From positions 1 to 64,000 of the forward strand of contig CAWJZV010000024.1 of NCBI GenBank assembly GCA_963847445.1: DNA of 64,000 nt. Reading direction: 5' to 3'. The position numbers and the translations under genes are program-made. A model generated the notes under the pieces. That model saw only the letters and a list, made by a program, of their open reading frames with translations. It was not told where the DNA came from and did no database searches. Shown here one piece after another: positions 1-6,503 of this stretch. Origin of the DNA: an uncultured delta proteobacterium. GTDB taxonomy: Bacteria; Desulfobacterota; Binatia; UBA9968. Position 1 is the stretch's first letter. Every line of letters begins with the position of its first letter.

Positions 1-293
1 TCTCAATCCCATGCGCATAGCTAACCCTCCGGAGGTTGTCGTGAACTAACTACGTAGCTTGCCGGCTTTCCCTAAGAGCGTTAAACCCCAGTGTAGCGAG
101 GTAAACGAGTTAAAAGACGCCATCGATTAGCTCGACCAACTTTCGGCAGGTGCGGTTCTTCTCGACTTTGTCCATTTAGACAACAGCCGGGTCGGATTCA
201 AAAGCGTTGTAGGTTTTGCGCGGAATCTGATCAGAGTAAAACCCTTATAATAATGGGGCAGGGCATTAAGGTAATCCCTTTCCCATCTCGGTT

Positions 294-329
294 TTGACAT
301 AATATACGGGAATAAGTATATTTGTATAA
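294..329 (+). promoter_or_regulatory. sigma70-type promoter with overlapping operator, probably leaderless, for higBA
   Basis: TTGACA (294-299), 17-nt spacer, TATATT (317-322), 6 nt, then ATG at 329. Perfect inverted repeat AATATAC-N8-GTATATT at 301-322. Confidence 0.7.
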
Positions 330-691
330 TGTCGGACAATCCCAAGCCGATCGTATGGATCGGGACATCTAGACGCGACCTAAAGACTTTCCCGAAACAG
401 GTCCGCTCCGATATCGGTCAGGCGCTTTATTCAGCCCAGTTAGGTGAAACTGATCCTGCGACCAAGCCGCTTAAGGGACTTGGCGGGGCAAGCGTAATGG
501 AGATCGTTGACCGTTACGATACCAATACTTATCGTGCTGTCTACACCGTGCAATTTTCCGAGGTTATTTACGTTCTGCACTCCTTCCAGAAGAAATCCAA
601 GAGCGGCATCGCGACACCGAAAAAGGACATCGAACTCATCCGCCGCAGACTCGCCGAAGCTCAGCGGCTTAACCGGCAAAGGAGCAACTAA
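329..691 (+). CDS. higB: RelE/HigB (Gp49-like) type II toxin
   Basis: KPLKGLGG..VMEI and YRAVY..IYVLHSFQKKS motifs; lies upstream of an XRE antitoxin. Confidence 0.85.
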   Translation: MSDNPKPIVWIGTSRRDLKTFPKQVRSDIGQALYSAQLGETDPATKPLKGLGGASVMEIVDRYDTNTYRAVYTVQFSEVIYVLHSFQKKSKSGIATPKKDIELIRRRLAEAQRLNRQRSN

Positions 692-693
692 CA

Positions 694-1029
694 ATGACAG
701 CTAAAAGACGAAAAACCATTACCTTTGAAAAAAGCAGCGGCAACGTGTTTGCTGATATTGGGTTCGCTCACCCGGAACGCGAGCAACTCAAGGCCCATCT
801 CACTCTACAAATTTTCCGCATCATCAAGAATCGCGGCCTCACACAGGTCGAAGCGGGCGCGCTCCTCGGCATAAAGCAGCCACACGTTTCGGCCCTGATG
901 CGAAACCGTTCCGGCAATTTTTCCGTCGAACGCCTAATGGATTTTTTAATTGCGCTCGGCCACGACGTTGAGATCACCGTCAAGCCAACTCGCAAATCAC
1001 AGGGGCAGGTGTCGATCGTCCTTGCTTGA
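694..1029 (+). CDS. higA: XRE/HTH antitoxin (HigA-like)
   Basis: SSGNVFADIG N-terminus; LTQVEAGALLGIKQPHVSAL helix-turn-helix; FSVERLM motif. Confidence 0.85.
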   Translation: MTAKRRKTITFEKSSGNVFADIGFAHPEREQLKAHLTLQIFRIIKNRGLTQVEAGALLGIKQPHVSALMRNRSGNFSVERLMDFLIALGHDVEITVKPTRKSQGQVSIVLA

Positions 1030-1206
1030 TAGCGCGAGTGCAATTTGGGACGAATGCACCCCAGCACGAAACGTTTCTCAACCTTGATCATCCGCGCTGC
1101 CCGCGAGCAGTGTCCTGTTTCGGGCTCGCGCGCAGCGCAATCAGACTCGCCACTCCATCGACCTGGGTGTCTCCATCGCACGCATGAAGTAGAGGTCGGG
1201 AACGTT

Positions 1207-1470
1207 TTAACAACACCGTTCCGCTACTCTTTTCCTGATCCAAAAGGACTTTGTCCAGCTAGTCAATAACGTCACCTGTTCGGAGACTGCCAACACAATG
1301 ATCTTGGCCCGCTTCATCAACCGCGCCGGGGTTTTCCCTGCTCGCGACCACGTCTTGAGAATATTCATTTCTCTCTCGGTCAACTCTATGACTGGGGCAA
1401 CCCGCATAAAAACTTCCTCCTGCCCCTTAGACGTAGATTAACTCCTATTAATTCAGAGACACTACACTAG
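1207..1470 (-). mobile_element. IS630-family remnant (left end plus transposase N-terminus)
   Basis: MRVAPVIELTERE..RAKIIVLA resembles IS630 transposase N-termini. A GGAGGA RBS precedes it, the end reads CTAGTGTAGTGTCTC, and similarity is lost after about 40 codons. Confidence 0.65.
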
Positions 1471-1603
1471 ATCTTTCGACTTTGCTTCGCTACTCACACG
1501 CGGTCCGCTCGCGACATACAATTGCGCGGGAATGATTCGGCCCAAATTTTCGTCACTCTACTGGAATTGCCGGGGAGGTGGCAAGGGTTTCTTAAAAACA
1601 ACC

Positions 1604-1850
1604 CCGTTCCAGGTTCAAGGCATTTAAAGATCGTACCGTTCCAATAGTTCCAGTCGTTCCACAGGTTCCAAACGTTCCAGCGGCTTCTTGGATCGTTCAA
1701 AGGTTCAAGGGTTCAAGGTCAGATTCGGATGGGATGAAGTCGGGGCCAGGCCCGTTCAAGGTTCAAGGTTCAAAAGTTCAATGTCAGATTTGGACGGGAT
1801 CGCGGAAGAGTCGCTGTTCAGCGGTTCAAGCGTTCAAGGACAGATTCGGA
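1604..1850. repeat. GTTC(A/C)A-rich short-period repeat tract, including three ~60-bp units ending in CAGATT(C/T)GG
   Basis: Read directly from the sequence; homologous to 2520-2650. Confidence 0.8.
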
Positions 1851-1860
1851 GAGCTGTCGC

Positions 1861-2073
1861 CTATTTGCCAACGGTGAGCTCGGCTTCAAAGGGCCGCTCC
1901 TTGCGAAACCGACTGACGCCGAGAATGCTGAACCCGACCACTTGTCCATGCTCGTCGACCCGCTCCATGAGCGCGTCATGGGCAGTTTCGCGCATTGAGC
2001 CGGCGGCATCGCTGAACCGTACTTTTAAAAAGTCCCCTTCGGGATCGAACCAGACTTTTACTTTATCGACCAT
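1861..2073 (-). CDS. DUF2283-family protein (putative antitoxin)
   Basis: VWFDPEGDFLKVRFS and RVDEHGQVVGFSIL signatures; overlaps the upstream gene. Confidence 0.75.
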   Translation of the reverse strand: MVDKVKVWFDPEGDFLKVRFSDAAGSMRETAHDALMERVDEHGQVVGFSILGVSRFRKERPFEAELTVGK

Positions 2074-2369
2074 AGGATTTCTCCTGCTTTCACATTGTCC
2101 GTCAAGTACGCGGTGATAACAAAAGCATCACTGGGTAAATACTTTACCACCACGCACAACCATTTCCCACCCAGCCGGGTACGCGCATAAAACTCGTAAA
2201 AGAGCTTTACGCTATCGTCGGAACGCGATACCCGGACCTCGCTCGGTGTCTGCAAGATTCGCCCGACTTCATCTTCCATTCCGACCATCTCAGCATGCTC
2301 CAAGATAGGCATCAGTCGTTCGTCGGTGAGCCTAATGGAGCGGCCAAAGCAATCGTTGATCAGCTTCAT
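2058..2369 (-). CDS. RelE/BECR-fold putative RNase toxin
   Basis: IRLTDER..I and KWLCVVVKY..AFVITAY pattern; coupled to the DUF2283 gene. Confidence 0.6.
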   Translation of the reverse strand: MKLINDCFGRSIRLTDERLMPILEHAEMVGMEDEVGRILQTPSEVRVSRSDDSVKLFYEFYARTRLGGKWLCVVVKYLPSDAFVITAYLTDNVKAGEILWSIK

Positions 2370-2404
2370 AGTTGCAAGATATGGCAGCGCTCCACTCGGC
2401 GCAA
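2370..2404 (-). promoter_or_regulatory. probable leaderless promoter
   Basis: TTGCGC-N17-TATCTT-N6-ATG on the minus strand; no Shine-Dalgarno. Confidence 0.5.
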
Positions 2405-2519
2405 TCCCCGTAATAGCGACGGTTCGCCGCCTTGTGACATCAATGAAACGGACTAAAGGCCTGATCGCTTCGCTCCGGTCTTGCCCCCGTGCAAAGATTC
2501 ACGGCAGTTAAAGATCAAC

Positions 2520-2650
2520 CCGTTCAAATCGCTCCAATCATTCAACCGCTTCGCCACGTTCAAAACGTTAACTGACTAGGACTCGTTCAAGGGTTCAAGG
2601 CATTTAAAGATCGGCCCGTTCAAAAGTTCAAGGTCAGATTCGGGCGGGGA
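2520..2650. repeat. GTTCAA-rich tract, direct copy of part of 1604-1850
   Basis: GGTTCAAGGCATTTAAAGATCG at 1612 and 2592; GTTCAAGGTCAGATTCGG at about 1711 and 2626. Confidence 0.8.
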
Positions 2651-2694
2651 CTTCCGCTTTTCCGGAATTCCGGGAACGTGAGAATGGACGTCAA

Positions 2695-2920
2695 TTATCG
2701 TTTTCCATAGCGTGCGGTGCGTTCCTCAACCAGGAAGCCGATCTTGCGCTTCTTGGGCTCCGGCGGGGTTATCAGTTGCCGCACGCGGCGAACAACGTCC
2801 TGATGCTCGTGTCGTGCGCCGTCACCGCTCGCTCCAACTCATCCAGTTTAAGTTTGACTTCTTGTTGCAGCTCAACGGTGGCGCGGAGGCGAATGAAGGC
2901 CCGCACCACAAATGAGCTAC
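2695..2920 (-). pseudogene. C-terminal remnant of an ORF6N/KilA-N DNA-binding protein
   Basis: Translates FVVRAFIRLR..KLDELER..HD..I..LF, then a frameshift, then RQLITPPEPKKRKIGF; the 5' part is absent. Confidence 0.65.
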
Positions 2921-3028
2921 CTGGGGACGCTGTTTCCTAGAGGGACAAAGTCCGTTCATGCCGCAGACGCGGAATTCAGCACTAACTTTGGCGTTGATGT
3001 AAATCGTAAATCGACAAACATTGCGCCG

Positions 3029-3307
3029 TCAAATCGACGCTTCTTTAAAAGCGCGGAGAACGGCGTTCATGCGCGTTTGATACCCTCGCCCTTGGGCTTT
3101 AAACCACTCTACAACGTCCGCATCGACTCGGAGGGCCAGCGATGTCTTTGGGGGAACCGGTTGAAGCCCCTTACGCACAAGCGTCCGAGCGACATGCGTG
3201 ATGACGAGCTGCGGATGCGCTTTCGATAGTTTGATTTGGTGCTCTTTCATTGCGCGTAATCGTTTCCAATCAGTTTTGGAGACTTTTGAAGAGGTACGCT
3301 TCTTCAT
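3029..3307 (-). CDS. brnA: BrnA antitoxin
   Basis: TDWKRL and LRVDADVVEWFKAQGRGYQTRMNAVLR motifs. Confidence 0.9.
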   Translation of the reverse strand: MKKRTSSKVSKTDWKRLRAMKEHQIKLSKAHPQLVITHVARTLVRKGLQPVPPKTSLALRVDADVVEWFKAQGRGYQTRMNAVLRAFKEASI

Positions 3308-3545
3308 GTCGTGTCGCCTTTCTAAAAGAGATAATGCGGATTTGTTCCGGTGTTTCGGTATGGACAATGGAAACGGCTGTGCCTTTGAGAACCCCCAAGG
3401 TCACAAAGCGCTGCTCGCCGTAGTTGAATCGATCATCTTCGTACGTAACTGTCGAACCGCCGAAGACCTCCGGCGCGTCACGGAAGTCGAGTTTGTGAAT
3501 CCTGAGATTAGCACTTCGTTTGCGCTCATCCCATTCAAAGAGCAT
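3270..3545 (-). CDS. brnT: BrnT RNase toxin
   Basis: FEWDERK..N..H..DF, YGEQRF and IRIISFRKA motifs. Confidence 0.9.
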   Translation of the reverse strand: MLFEWDERKRSANLRIHKLDFRDAPEVFGGSTVTYEDDRFNYGEQRFVTLGVLKGTAVSIVHTETPEQIRIISFRKATRHEEAYLFKSLQN

Positions 3546-3580
3546 AGACAAACTGTATATACATGTCGCTACGCCGTCAA
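3546..3580 (-). promoter_or_regulatory. probable leaderless promoter and operator of brnTA
   Basis: TTGACG-N17-TACAGT-N6-ATG; the palindrome TGTATATACA overlaps the -10 box. Confidence 0.65.
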
Positions 3581-3647
3581 GATGGTTAACAGCTCCGTGC
3601 AAGTCCGTTTTTCACATAGTGCAGGGGATGGCCGGGAGGCGGTGACT

Positions 3648-3950
3648 CGGGTTTAAAACCCGCCCCAACGATTCCAAAATCTTTTTTGCGTTCTTTGCAT
3701 TGCTATGTCTCATGATTCGCGCGCGACGCGCAAATTCGCCGGATTAGAAAATATCTCGGTCTCGAAGATTCCTCTCGCCAAGGCGCAAAGGCGCCAAGTT
3801 CGGAGTTTCTGTCATTTCGACCACGGGGAGAAATCTCTGTTAGAACCCTCGCATCCGCTCGGGATGACGGGCATTGGCCCGTCACCTTTGCGTCTTTGCG
3901 CCTTTGCGAGAGACAATCCGAAACTCGGTTGCGGCTCTGCTGCGCTAAGC
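3648..3950. repeat. composite intergenic repeat mosaic (GTAG-type REP, CGCAAAG palindrome, nested GTCAT..ATGAC element, GGTTGCGGC motif)
   Basis: Each component recurs elsewhere in the window. Confidence 0.8.
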
Positions 3951-4004
3951 CCCTTGCGGTTAATTCCCCGATTCCGAATATTCTTGCGCGGCTAAATTCT
4001 CTTC

Positions 4005-4205
4005 TTACAGCTTCGCTAGATCGCTGATCTTGCCGCGCCGTCCCGCGTGGTGGAAATTCGGCCACTCTTCGACCTGGGCATCGTGGTAATTCTCACGGTA
4101 CCATTTGACGATCTCGCCGGCGGTGGCGAACCAAACTTTCTTATGTTTCTTGGCGTAGCGGATGAACTCGCGCAAGAGTAACGCGCGGAACGGCCGGCCG
4201 CCGAC
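4005..4205 (-). pseudogene. displaced duplicate of the last 66 codons plus stop of the deacetylase gene (5561-5761)
   Basis: 201-nt direct repeat with 6 differences, all synonymous. Confidence 0.9.
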
Positions 4206-4426
4206 ACCATCCGCGACCGCCTCCAAACCGAAGGAATTACCAAGATGGCTCCAATAAATCAGGTTTTCGTTTCAAGATATTTCCTGTGCATTGGCCCCCC
4301 ATCGTCGGAGTTCGATAGAACCGCGTTCCGGCCGAAGTATTAGTGCAAATAGCTCCGAAAATGATATATTACTCGGACAATACATTCGGCGGTATTGTCG
4401 CCGACCAAAAAAGGCACGTGAAAAAA

Positions 4427-4735
4427 ATGAGCATCGAGATTCCGAAAGAACAGATCGCTGACTTTTGCCGAAAGTGGAAAATCGTAGAACTTTCTCTATT
4501 CGGCTCGGTGCTGCGGGAAGACTTCAGACCCGACAGCGACGTGGACGTCCTGGTAACCTTTTCTCAAGACGCAGACTGGAGCTTGCTCGACCACATGGCC
4601 ATGGAGGAGGAGGCGTCAGCTATTTTCGGCAGGAAGGTAGACTTGATAAGCCGCAAGGCGATTGAGCGCAGCGACAATTACATTCGTCGGAAGGCTATCT
4701 TGGAAACAGCCCAGCCTTACTATGTCACGCGATGA
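4427..4735 (+). CDS. mntA: MNT minimal nucleotidyltransferase antitoxin
   Basis: LFGSVLREDFRPDSDVDVLV (GS-x10-DxD) motif. Confidence 0.9.
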   Translation: MSIEIPKEQIADFCRKWKIVELSLFGSVLREDFRPDSDVDVLVTFSQDADWSLLDHMAMEEEASAIFGRKVDLISRKAIERSDNYIRRKAILETAQPYYVTR

Positions 4736-5064
4736 CGCCACCTTACTGGATTTGCTTAAGGCGGCCCGGTTGGTAGTGCGGTTTAAAGGGAAACTCGCGA
4801 AGAAAGCCTTCGTCCGCGACGTTAAGACGCAATCGGCAATCTTGCATCAATTGCTCGTCATCGGAGAAGCGGTAAAAAGGTTGTCAGAGGAATTCCGTGG
4901 CCAACATTCTCGAATCCCCTGGATAAGAATCGCAGGTGATGCGTGATAAATTGATCCATGCGTACGATGCTGTAGATTTGGATGAGGTTTGGAAAACGGT
5001 AACCAAAGACATTGCACCCCTGATTTCTTTCTTAGAGCGGCTCGTACCGCAGGAGAAAAAATAA
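4722..5064 (+). CDS. hepT: HEPN/DUF86 RNase toxin (frameshift near 4938)
   Basis: VIGEAVK and IPW..IAG, then in the shifted frame MRDKLIHAY (R-x4-H). Confidence 0.85.
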
Positions 5065-5122
5065 AATAGTCTTCAAAGACTCATTTCAAATAAAGTACGC
5101 GGTCTGTCTACATCTCAGAAAA

Positions 5123-5510
5123 AGGGCGGGTTTAAAACCCGCCCCTACGATTCAGAAATCTTTTTTGCGTTCTTTGCACTGTGATGCATTAGAATTTGCC
5201 ACGCCTGTGCAAATTTTATCCCCTGAGGTCGCCGCTCCGCCACCCCAGGGCGTATGCCATACGCCCCTACGTGCGGAATTCGTCCTGAAATTTACTTTGC
5301 ATTGCAGTAGCTCACAGTTTGCGAAGCTTGCGCAAATTTTCGGTCCTGGGTCCGTAAATAGCCGCGCTCCATTGAAAAATCCATCTCACCACGAAGACAC
5401 GAAGAGCACGAAGTTCGGAGTAATAATTTTCCGAACCCTTAGTGTCCTTCGCGACCTTCGTGGTGAAAACTCTTTCCCATTTGGTTGCGGCTATGCTGCG
5501 CTAAGCCCTT
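5123..5510. repeat. composite repeat mosaic containing the empty CACCACGAAG..CTTCGTGGTG element (5385-5470)
   Basis: GTAG-type REPs at 5123 and 5248; the outer parts match 3648-3950. Confidence 0.8.
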
Positions 5511-5560
5511 TGCGGTTAATTCCCCGATTCCGAATATTCTTGCGCGGCTAAATTCTCTTC

Positions 5561-6503
5561 CTACAGCTTCGCTAGATCGCTGATCTTGCCGCGCCGTCCC
5601 GCGTGGTGGAAGTTCGGCCACTCTTCGACCTGGGCGTCGTGGTAATTTTCACGGTACCATTTGACGATCTCGCCGGCGGTGGCGAACCAGACTTTCTTAT
5701 GTTTCTTGGCGTAGCGGATGAACTCGCGCAAGAGTAAAGCGCGGAACGGCCGGCCGCCGACAAACGGATGATTGCCCCACATCATGAACTTCGGATCGGT
5801 GGCGCCCTCTTCGTAGAGGCAATCGAAGCAATCCTTCCACATCTGCAACAAATCGCGCGGCGTGCGGCCGGCGCGCTGGTAGCTCGAATAGTCGTTTAGG
5901 TCCTGGAAATACGCCAGCACCGTCAGCTCCTTATTCTTGACCTTGAGCGTGTACGGCGTCTCCTCATGCTGCGGGTCCATCCAATAGTTGTAGCCGCATT
6001 CCAGGATCACTTCCGGCGTCGAAGCGCTCGGCGCCACGCCGGTAGACAGATAGCCCACCGGCGCGTTGCCGACGACTTTTTTGACGGCAGCGACGGTGTT
6101 TCAGCAGATCCTTCTTTTCCTTGGCCCGCTGCTTCATGTAACTGTAGTCATGGGTCCAGGTCTCGGTGCCGATCTCATGGCCATACTGGGCGGCTTCTTG
6201 GAAAATCTCCGGATAATTTTGCACCGTGATGCCGGTGGGGAAAAAAGTCGTGCGAATCTTTTCCTGCTCGAAAACATTCAGCATCCGGTAAATGCCGACG
6301 CGTTCGCCGAACTCGCGGTCGGTGATGATCGCCAGGTTTCTTTTGGTGACGGCGTTGCGCGGAAAACTGCGCCGATTCTCCTGCTGTAACGTGTCCGGCC
6401 CGCCGAGATCTTCCGGCCAGGTTTCAAAGGCGACGCAAGGCGTGATCGCGATGCGCGCGCCGTTGGGCCATTTGATCGGCTTGCGCTTGGGTTTAACTTT
6501 CAT
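5561..6503 (-). CDS. polysaccharide deacetylase/PuuE-like hydrolase (frameshift near 6100)
   Basis: WPNGARIA, EFGERVGIYRML, GHEIG and HPFVGGRPFR motifs. Confidence 0.8.

Follow-up and report, generated by a model that had tools for sequence, protein, structure and literature searches.

A duplicated deacetylase gene end around an MNT-HepT cassette in an uncultured Binatia bacterium: a possible scar of recombinase-free insertion with long target duplication

How does the 3' end of a host gene come to lie, in a second and nearly identical copy, on the far side of a toxin-antitoxin cassette? The question is raised by contig C24 (CAWJZV010000024.1) of an uncultured delta proteobacterium (genome G000, hereafter W), a metagenome-assembled genome of 7.19 Mb in 48 contigs (completeness 91.8%, contamination 6.9%); the window analysed here covers the opening 64 kb of C24. 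A polysaccharide deacetylase gene is followed there by an MNT-HepT cassette and, behind it, by an orphan copy of its own last codons. Repeat search and MAFFT alignment gave a direct repeat of 280 nt (3927-4206 versus 5483-5762, 97% identity, eight differences), with copies starting 1556 nt apart and 1276 nt between them. The initial annotation, made from the letters alone, had paired 4005-4205 with 5561-5761 and placed an MNT-HEPN pair between the copies; the duplication was recovered with extended bounds, and Pfam identified the pair (PF01909 and PF01934). We regard it as an even call that the repeat was left by a recombinase-free insertion-duplication (an insertion with long target duplication), carrying toxin-antitoxin cargo, in the slot between an ABC substrate-binding-protein (SBP) gene and the deacetylase gene. 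The locus is built as follows.

3648-3720, no strand: module A, a native intergenic hairpin region whose palindrome has no left arm, older copy of A'
3721-3926, no strand: module B, a nested dispersed repeat with ~90-150 genome copies and no alignment to 5200-5482
3927-4004, no strand: module C, 78 nt directly downstream of the orphan stop codon, 76/78 identical to 5483-5560, in the putatively homogenised tract
4005-4206, minus strand: orphan deacetylase 3' tail (Dt*), the last 66 codons and the stop, 196/202 identical to 5561-5762
4199-4206, no strand: junction microhomology CGCCGACA, 8 nt, common to the native deacetylase and native SBP genes
4207-4298, plus strand: orphan SBP 3' tail (St*), decayed, with its stop codon lost
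4306-4426, plus strand: upstream region of the cassette, conserved with the independent contig L056
4427-4735, plus strand: MNT nucleotidyltransferase (antitoxin), PF01909, E 3e-17, 63.2 bits
4722-5064, plus strand: HepT (HEPN) toxin gene, PF01934 in two frames, 34.8 and 39.0 bits on its two halves
5123-5199, no strand: module A', the complete palindrome GGGCGGGTTTAAAACCCGCCC and 55 nt, a native terminator-like region between convergent genes
5200-5482, no strand: module B', nested dispersed repeats unrelated to B and absent in L056
5483-5560, no strand: module C', 78 nt downstream of the stop codon of the live gene
5561-6503, minus strand: live polysaccharide deacetylase gene (tail 5561-5762), with Polysacc_deac_1 on its 5' part

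The six coding differences between Dt* and the live tail are without exception third-position and synonymous (TAG/TAA, AAC/AAT, GAC/GAT, GAA/GAG, GTC/GTT and GCT/GCG), the same codon pairs as first listed, and two more fall in the 78 non-coding bases of the repeat. Six random substitutions would all land on third positions with a chance of (1/3)^6 = 0.0014. The nearest relative of Dt* is the live deacetylase gene of W itself, and the tail occurs just twice in the genome, 14 further matches being confined to its first 23-53 nt or to short internal pieces of dispersed repeats. The initial proposal that both tails were functional in different strains agrees with these data: no amino-acid difference separates them, and they are 97.5% identical to each other and 95.5% each to the tail of the relative G003, as expected for two alleles of one species.

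What adjoins the orphan is a piece of the neighbouring host gene. BLASTP aligned St* to residues 279-304 of the 307-aa SBP of G004 (17/26 identical, E 7e-9), and its DNA is ~63-74% identical to native SBP tails. Dt* and St* meet at CGCCGACA; in W, G003 and G004 the native deacetylase copy of this 8-mer is followed by AACGG and the native SBP copy by CCATCC. Because both native genes contain the 8-mer, the junction is best described as an illegitimate join of two host sites, not as the end of a foreign element, and because the deacetylase tail is joined there to a piece of the neighbouring SBP gene, the incoming piece would have been cut from the same intergenic slot. St* and the microhomology were absent from the earlier account, and with them what appears to be the closure point of the incoming piece becomes visible. 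The exact junction 25-mer had no match in metagenome contigs, the two matches of a 24-mer in genome contigs had no other similarity to the locus and are therefore due to chance, and no junction-crossing match was found in 30 other genomes of the genus, including the unpublished G005.

The closest relatives of W have the slot without cargo. In G003 and G004, the nearest by DNA identity (94% and 90%), an intact 313-aa deacetylase gene is convergent with the SBP gene, the stop codons lie ~100 nt apart and no toxin-antitoxin genes stand between them. The same empty slot, with stops 100-131 nt apart, was found in G003, G004 and the metagenome loci L041, L042, L049, L050 and L058; relatives such as G003 and G004 have a single deacetylase tail at this site, to which the 280-nt repeat aligns once. 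The intact SBP gene of W lies at the start of another contig (C27:631-1508), which synteny with G003 identifies as the missing flank of the window, so that the slot in W measures at least 6.2 kb and crosses the assembly break C27-C24. The live deacetylase gene carries in the W assembly a 1-nt insertion at ~6103, absent in a 97%-identical strain of run X6, which may be a real mutation or an assembly error.

With contamination of 6.9% in the assembly and a contig start 3.6-5.8 kb away, the locus could be a chimera of two strains or the relic of an integrase-borne island that targeted the deacetylase 3' end after the design of icd/e14; replacement of a gene 3' end is indeed a hallmark of such islands. 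Several observations speak against both. L056, an independent JGI metagenome contig from a non-sister lineage, has the same junction and order as W and reads, on one contig, intact deacetylase, A' hairpin, intact HepT, intact MNT, St*, the junction and the first 83 nt of Dt*, where it ends; the outer stem of A' is kept. Its cargo is 82.4% identical to that of W over 1057 nt and its deacetylase gene 85%. The Dt*/St* junction was bridged by Logan contigs of two other studies (X5 record 21 and X6 record 26), and X5 record 20 covers the passage between module B and the orphan tail with one difference in 383 nt. No single read contig spanned both full tail copies in four runs of short Logan contigs, which hold just 0.2-0.3 of the sampled words (none >0.30); joints with little backing, for instance 4237-5119 (side 26), were set aside, and uncovered stretches are evidence neither way. 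The structure is not an assembly artefact, and the strain-chimeric assembly that had been named as a refutation is contradicted by the passage from live gene through cargo to orphan within L056. As to an island, the junction partner is the neighbouring SBP gene at a microhomology and not an element end, and no integrase or transposase family, tyrosine and serine recombinases included, matched in Pfam among the ORFs tested in the first 5.8 kb, in agreement with the earlier remark that no integrase was visible. This alternative, already largely refuted, strikes us as the least probable considered here.

The cargo itself is a pair of overlapping NTP_transf_2 and HepT-like genes, both above the Pfam cut-offs. 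The motifs GSx10DxD of MNT and Rx4HxY of HepT are readable in the translations. The HepT frame of W is broken by a 1-nt insertion near 4937 (within 4926-4950), leaving no intact toxin frame; the extra base is absent in L056 and G033, whose MNT and HepT homologues are intact, and present in an X1 contig identical to the window over 4841-5029. The order of PF01909 followed by an overlapping PF01934 is that of known MntA-HepT pairs, from which the W copy differs by its frameshifted toxin. A consensus scan found no promoter-like site in 4306-4426; over 3550-5650 its yield, one promoter-like site (upstream of BrnT) and a single terminator-like site, did not exceed that of shuffled sequences. The one other homologue of the cassette studied closely, in G033:C644, matches the two coding regions only (4425-5039) and stands in an unrelated context, and a weaker match was found in G005 (L029). 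Beside MNT-HepT in G033:C644 (L028), an ORF at 2040-2471 gave the impression, and no more, of an N-terminus like that of REP-associated tyrosine transposases.

Genome self-comparison of W, in which 19 low-copy local direct-repeat pairs were inspected, indicated that the scar recurs. Eight pairs of a gene end and its orphan copy together hold 62 synonymous and 23 non-synonymous differences, with ratios per locus from 16:1 (C30) and 17:5 (C46) to 3:6 (C33); unbiased substitutions in orphan tails, which would have told against the initial annotation, were thus not what was found. Toxin-antitoxin Pfam families lie between the repeats in 4/10 further loci scanned (the first four below).

C30: PIN_3, beside a 5' gene head
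C9: DUF2283
C28: Gp49 and HTH_3
C45: HigB and HTH_3, with an ABC transporter
C46: a HVO_A0114/MarR-type regulator and an unknown ORF
C15: genes outside the toxin-antitoxin families
C7 and C33: unknowns
C14: between the repeats a GFA-family gene; at the second copy a DUF433/DUF5615 pair
C48: a CopG antitoxin match below cut-off

The slot of C30 is empty in G014, measuring 80 nt, and in G004 and G029 the C9 repeat occurs once and carries no cargo. Since the whole genome holds only three HepT loci, 23 PIN matches and four DUF2283 matches, toxin-antitoxin cargo is in our judgement over-represented between gene-end repeats. Other duplications were noted in passing. At G000:C45:224611-231258 two copies of a complete class II aldolase gene (784 nt, 99% identical) enclose 5 kb holding the HigB/HTH pair and the ABC transporter, and a second HigB/HTH pair follows. 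Head-to-tail duplications of 3.2 kb at 96% (G000:C16:26544-32979) and 1.9 kb at 98% (G000:C44:3081-6922) may be real tandem copies or assembly effects. In the metagenome locus L043 (7290-12938), of another lineage, RadC and a type III restriction-modification pair (N6_N4_Mtase and ResIII; Mod/Res) occupy the slot beside a 34-residue orphan SBP tail in native orientation.

A different orphan of the same deacetylase, covering residues 131-313 and with a DUF2283 pair as cargo, is present in G009 and the near-identical L044. It is 87% identical to its own live gene, from which it differs in the homologous part by 33 synonymous and ~6 non-synonymous codons, and it lies within an open frame of 248-262 aa with an unrelated 95-aa N-terminus (L023 = G009:C590 722-1468; L044 3781-4569); a 42-nt in-frame deletion in the G009 frame is absent in L044. 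This frame may be expressed. The idea that the live gene of G009/L044 is a chimera was dropped, as the nearest neighbours of its 5' and 3' parts show no clear shift. Expression bears on the orphan tail of W as well, which could be a small gene, or part of one, under purifying selection on its product: the ORF 4005-4226 (73 aa, TTG start) is open and its deacetylase part has no amino-acid difference from the live tail, and the G009/L044 orphan, mostly synonymously diverged, has acquired a new N-terminus in its open frame. Yet no Shine-Dalgarno-like sequence precedes the TTG, just seven codons are added and the fragment has no Pfam match; moreover, the same synonymous bias at unrelated loci, 5' fragments included, points to a process and not to individual products. 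Selection on an orphan product is accordingly a very unlikely explanation.

How old is the join? A maximum-likelihood tree of 89 deacetylase genes placed W with G003, G004, L041 and L042, all of the empty arrangement (support 100/100), and L056 with G014 (100/96). As W and L056 are non-sister on well-supported branches, the junction needs at least two changes on this tree, and since the junction, St* and MNT-HepT are common to both at 82%, the structure is either old or moves as a unit. The flanks agree with age, St* being ~75% identical between W and L056 and modules A and A' 84% within W. The tails behave otherwise: orphan and live copy differ at 2/83 sites in W and 1/83 in L056, against 5-8/83 between genomes, so that the orphan is 97-99% identical to its own live gene in both lineages, and in L056 the two share a lineage-specific Leu-to-Phe change. 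Copies closer within than between genomes, amid diverged flanks, are the pattern of concerted evolution, seen in L056 over 83 nt only. The join thus appears to be old, and homologous recombination to have kept the two copies of the 280-nt tract alike. Two routes would fit: conversion of one copy by the other within a genome, or recurrent excision and re-entry between close strains, by which the two arms would simply be two local alleles. The all-synonymous differences fit re-entry, or conversion combined with allelic exchange of the live gene, and fit free decay of the orphan poorly; simple neutral decay was rejected, contradicted by the within-genome match of the tails and the diverged flanks.

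These ages also bear on the scenario of the initial annotation, in which an allele from another strain, carrying tail and cargo, replaced the resident 3' end and displaced it downstream in a single recent event with no later homogenisation. The six synonymous differences, tails closer to each other (97.5%) than to G003 (95.5%), and the 33 synonymous against ~6 non-synonymous codons of the G009/L044 orphan are what it would leave behind. Its components fared unevenly: the lack of an integrase and the functional look of both tails stand, but not the one-off recent event. The comparison of both tails with orthologues, which had been proposed as a check, returned tails resembling two alleles of one species. 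With the junction, St* and the cargo shared with L056 at 75-82%, however, the join is far older than the 3% divergence of the tails; St* has decayed and Dt* has not; the near-identity of the tails can equally come from gene conversion, the Leu-to-Phe change being common to orphan and live gene in L056; and recent receipt by L056 from the W lineage is disfavoured by 18% cargo divergence. We therefore consider a single recent replacement improbable, if better placed than selection on an orphan product.

The observed basis for an insertion-duplication is the anatomy of the locus, the microhomology, the junction in two lineages, the within- versus between-genome similarity, the empty sites and the recurrence in W; from these we infer a circular or one-ended intermediate, its origin in a donor, the mode of homogenisation and a stabilising role of the toxin. 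The donor piece would have comprised the last ~99 nt of the SBP gene, MNT-HepT, the intergenic hairpin and the terminal 202 nt of the deacetylase gene, and the 8-nt microhomology would have been the point at which it was circularised or joined in the donor genome. Because such a piece starts in the SBP tail and ends in the deacetylase tail, its source would have been this same slot in a genome already carrying the cassette. Entry would have proceeded by Campbell-type homologous recombination in the deacetylase tail: a circle with one crossover would give the observed order, and so would homologous recombination at one end combined with an illegitimate join at the other. The product would read live gene with full tail, hairpin, HepT, MNT, SBP fragment, displaced deacetylase tail and old downstream DNA. 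Homologous recombination, through conversion or through cycles of excision and re-entry between close strains, would then have kept the repeat 97-99% identical in each lineage, while the SBP fragment would have decayed because it has no nearby recombination partner, and the cassette, as an addiction module flanked by the repeats, would make a collapse of the duplication costly.

Several points weigh against this course of events. With HepT broken in W, addiction cannot stabilise the duplication now. None of the 80 metagenome loci examined had SBP, MNT-HepT and deacetylase in single copy, as a donor would. Cargo identity between W and L056 (82%) does not exceed that of their host genes (85%), giving no sign of recent transfer between these lineages, and L056 covers just 83 nt of the orphan tail. 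In addition, X5 and X6 contigs join 4305 back to 3720 (going back 586, with a 2-nt overlap), a variant in which the junction lacks MNT-HepT after St* and which fits a cargo-free duplication; such a joint would make modules B and C, Dt* and St* a 586-nt unit, tandem or circular. Tandem duplication in place also yields the same junction.

Tandem duplication is indeed the main rival. Unequal exchange at CGCCGACA would have doubled an empty slot, cassettes would have entered both slots later and conversion would keep the tails alike; copies that trapped an addiction module would persist because collapse would kill the cell. The empty arrangement does contain two CGCCGACA sites ~400 nt apart. Modules A and A', at 84%, look like an old duplicated pair, the X5/X6 contigs pass from the junction and St* directly into module B as a cargo-free 586-nt tandem unit would, and both slots hold cassettes between SBP stop and hairpin. 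The same scheme requires a separate and unexplained mechanism of cassette insertion, however, and it misfits C30 and C9, each of which has one cargo enclosed by its two repeat copies and a clean empty site in relatives. It also demands many independent losses, or two identical origins, for W and L056, and 6/6 synonymous differences are unlikely for a freely mutating orphan (estimate ~0.01-0.09). On balance, tandem duplication in place is a serious possibility to which we attach appreciably less credence than to an insertion-duplication.

Insertion with long target duplication has a precedent, for which the founding paper is said to be that of Nobusato et al. in Gene 259:99 (2000). Furuta, Abe and Kobayashi (2010, PMC2853133) describe restriction-modification insertions flanked by host repeats of 46-423 bp, free of mobility genes and with an empty site in a relative, and a 2013 review ascribes such movement to restriction-modification systems only (PMC3874152). 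Measured against the 2010 description, the repeat in W exceeds 30 bp (280 nt, 97%) and aligns to a single empty-site sequence (in G003, G004, L041, L042, L049, L050 and L058), and the insert is shorter than 20 kb (1276 nt) and contains no mobility genes, Pfam finding only MNT and HepT there, with the C27-C24 gap unseen; the cargo is of a different class, with MNT-HepT in place of restriction or modification genes. The resemblance extends to a small addictive unit with no mobility gene of its own, to variable direct host repeats of tens to hundreds of bp that often overlap gene 3' ends, and to a single copy at the empty site. Set apart from those cases, the W locus has type II/VII toxin-antitoxin cargo, a visible closure point and a repeat homogenised across lineages 15% apart. 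A literature search, not exhaustive, returned no report of toxin-antitoxin cassettes that lie between long duplicated ends of host genes.

Three further systems offer parallels. Campbell-type integration and homology-facilitated illegitimate recombination are known in naturally transformable bacteria. The W locus shares with them one homologous arm and one illegitimate join at a short GC-rich microhomology, and a one-arm circle gives the direct duplication of the arm around the cargo; unlike those laboratory observations, it is natural, old and recurrent. Integrase islands that replace a gene 3' end include e14 and phage 21 in icd of E. coli and the tRNA-gene islands. As there, the live gene keeps a functional, synonymously different tail supplied along with the cargo and the old tail is displaced to the far side, but here integrase and att core are lacking, the cargo is ~1.3 kb and the junction partner is a neighbouring host gene. 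Concerted evolution by gene conversion is exemplified by duplicated tuf or rRNA genes, in which, as in W, copies within a genome are more alike than orthologues and the flanks diverge. The W pair is unlike these in matching a live gene with a non-functional 202-nt fragment, and in that only synonymous differences are left between them.

The intergenic DNA around the repeat had been described at the outset as a duplicated framework with different nested repeats, and this description holds: A and A' (3648-3720 versus 5127-5199) are 84% identical and each other's closest match in the genome, C and C' are paired, and B and B' are unrelated dispersed-repeat modules of ~90-190 copies genome-wide. 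The perfect palindrome GGGCGGGTTTAAAACCCGCCC with its flanking motif is a dispersed intergenic repeat with 100 loci (up to three mismatches), at 3645, 5124, 6587, 10622, 37613 and 54080 in the window and ~94 elsewhere in the genome; other hairpin-rich modules, of 90-190 copies, are common to the genus. The palindrome was found within 300 nt of 2/37 toxin-antitoxin loci, both at the MNT-HepT duplication locus (random mean 0.48). An attC-like role in cassette recombination was ruled out, given the 100 loci and the absence of a toxin-antitoxin association, and neither a recombination site repeated with each cassette nor intI, as an integron cassette array would have, was found.

The remainder of the slot is filled by a toxin-antitoxin array that runs off the contig start at window position 1. 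Contig C27 opens with a Phd/YefM antitoxin fragment (C27:1-630 region, Pfam); beyond the assembly break the slot goes on, within the window, with a HigBA-like pair, a DUF2283 pair, BrnTA and then the MNT-HepT duplication locus, the genes before the latter being:

329-691, plus strand: HigB-like Gp49 (Pfam)
694-1029, plus strand: HTH_37 antitoxin (Pfam)
1861-2073, minus strand: DUF2283 (Pfam)
2058-2369, minus strand: partner ORF of DUF2283
3029-3367, minus strand: BrnA (Pfam)
3270-3602, minus strand: BrnT (Pfam)

Six further ORFs in 127-3229 had no Pfam match, the other ORFs tested there belonging to toxin-antitoxin families; 1207-1407 as an IS630-type fragment and 2772-2909 as an ORF6N-type fragment likewise found no support in Pfam.

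It is poorly understood how solitary toxin-antitoxin cassettes enter ordinary chromosomal sites when no transposase or integrase is at hand. The feature described here is best read as a long-target-duplication type of event with toxin-antitoxin cargo and an unusually legible history: the locus exposes a probable closure point, two lineages share its architecture, and W has similar scars at several further loci, with empty sites in relatives. It offers a testable model in which a one-arm circle would enter and leave by way of RecA and the toxin would guard the duplication. For annotation, it warns that orphan gene ends beside defence or addiction genes are informative scars, and that near-identity of an orphan to its live gene need not mean a recent event. 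Tentatively, and with more doubt than conviction, the model could be widened: small toxin-antitoxin and restriction-modification cassettes might be mobile without a recombinase, the mobile unit being the cassette plus a copy of a conserved host gene end, excised by RecA as a circle and re-inserted in any relative with that gene, while the toxin penalises loss. If true, each re-insertion would regenerate the internal junction, which would explain an identical junction in two non-sister lineages, and recombination would match the arm to the local allele, which would explain synonymous-only differences; orphan gene ends would then be working attachment arms and not debris.

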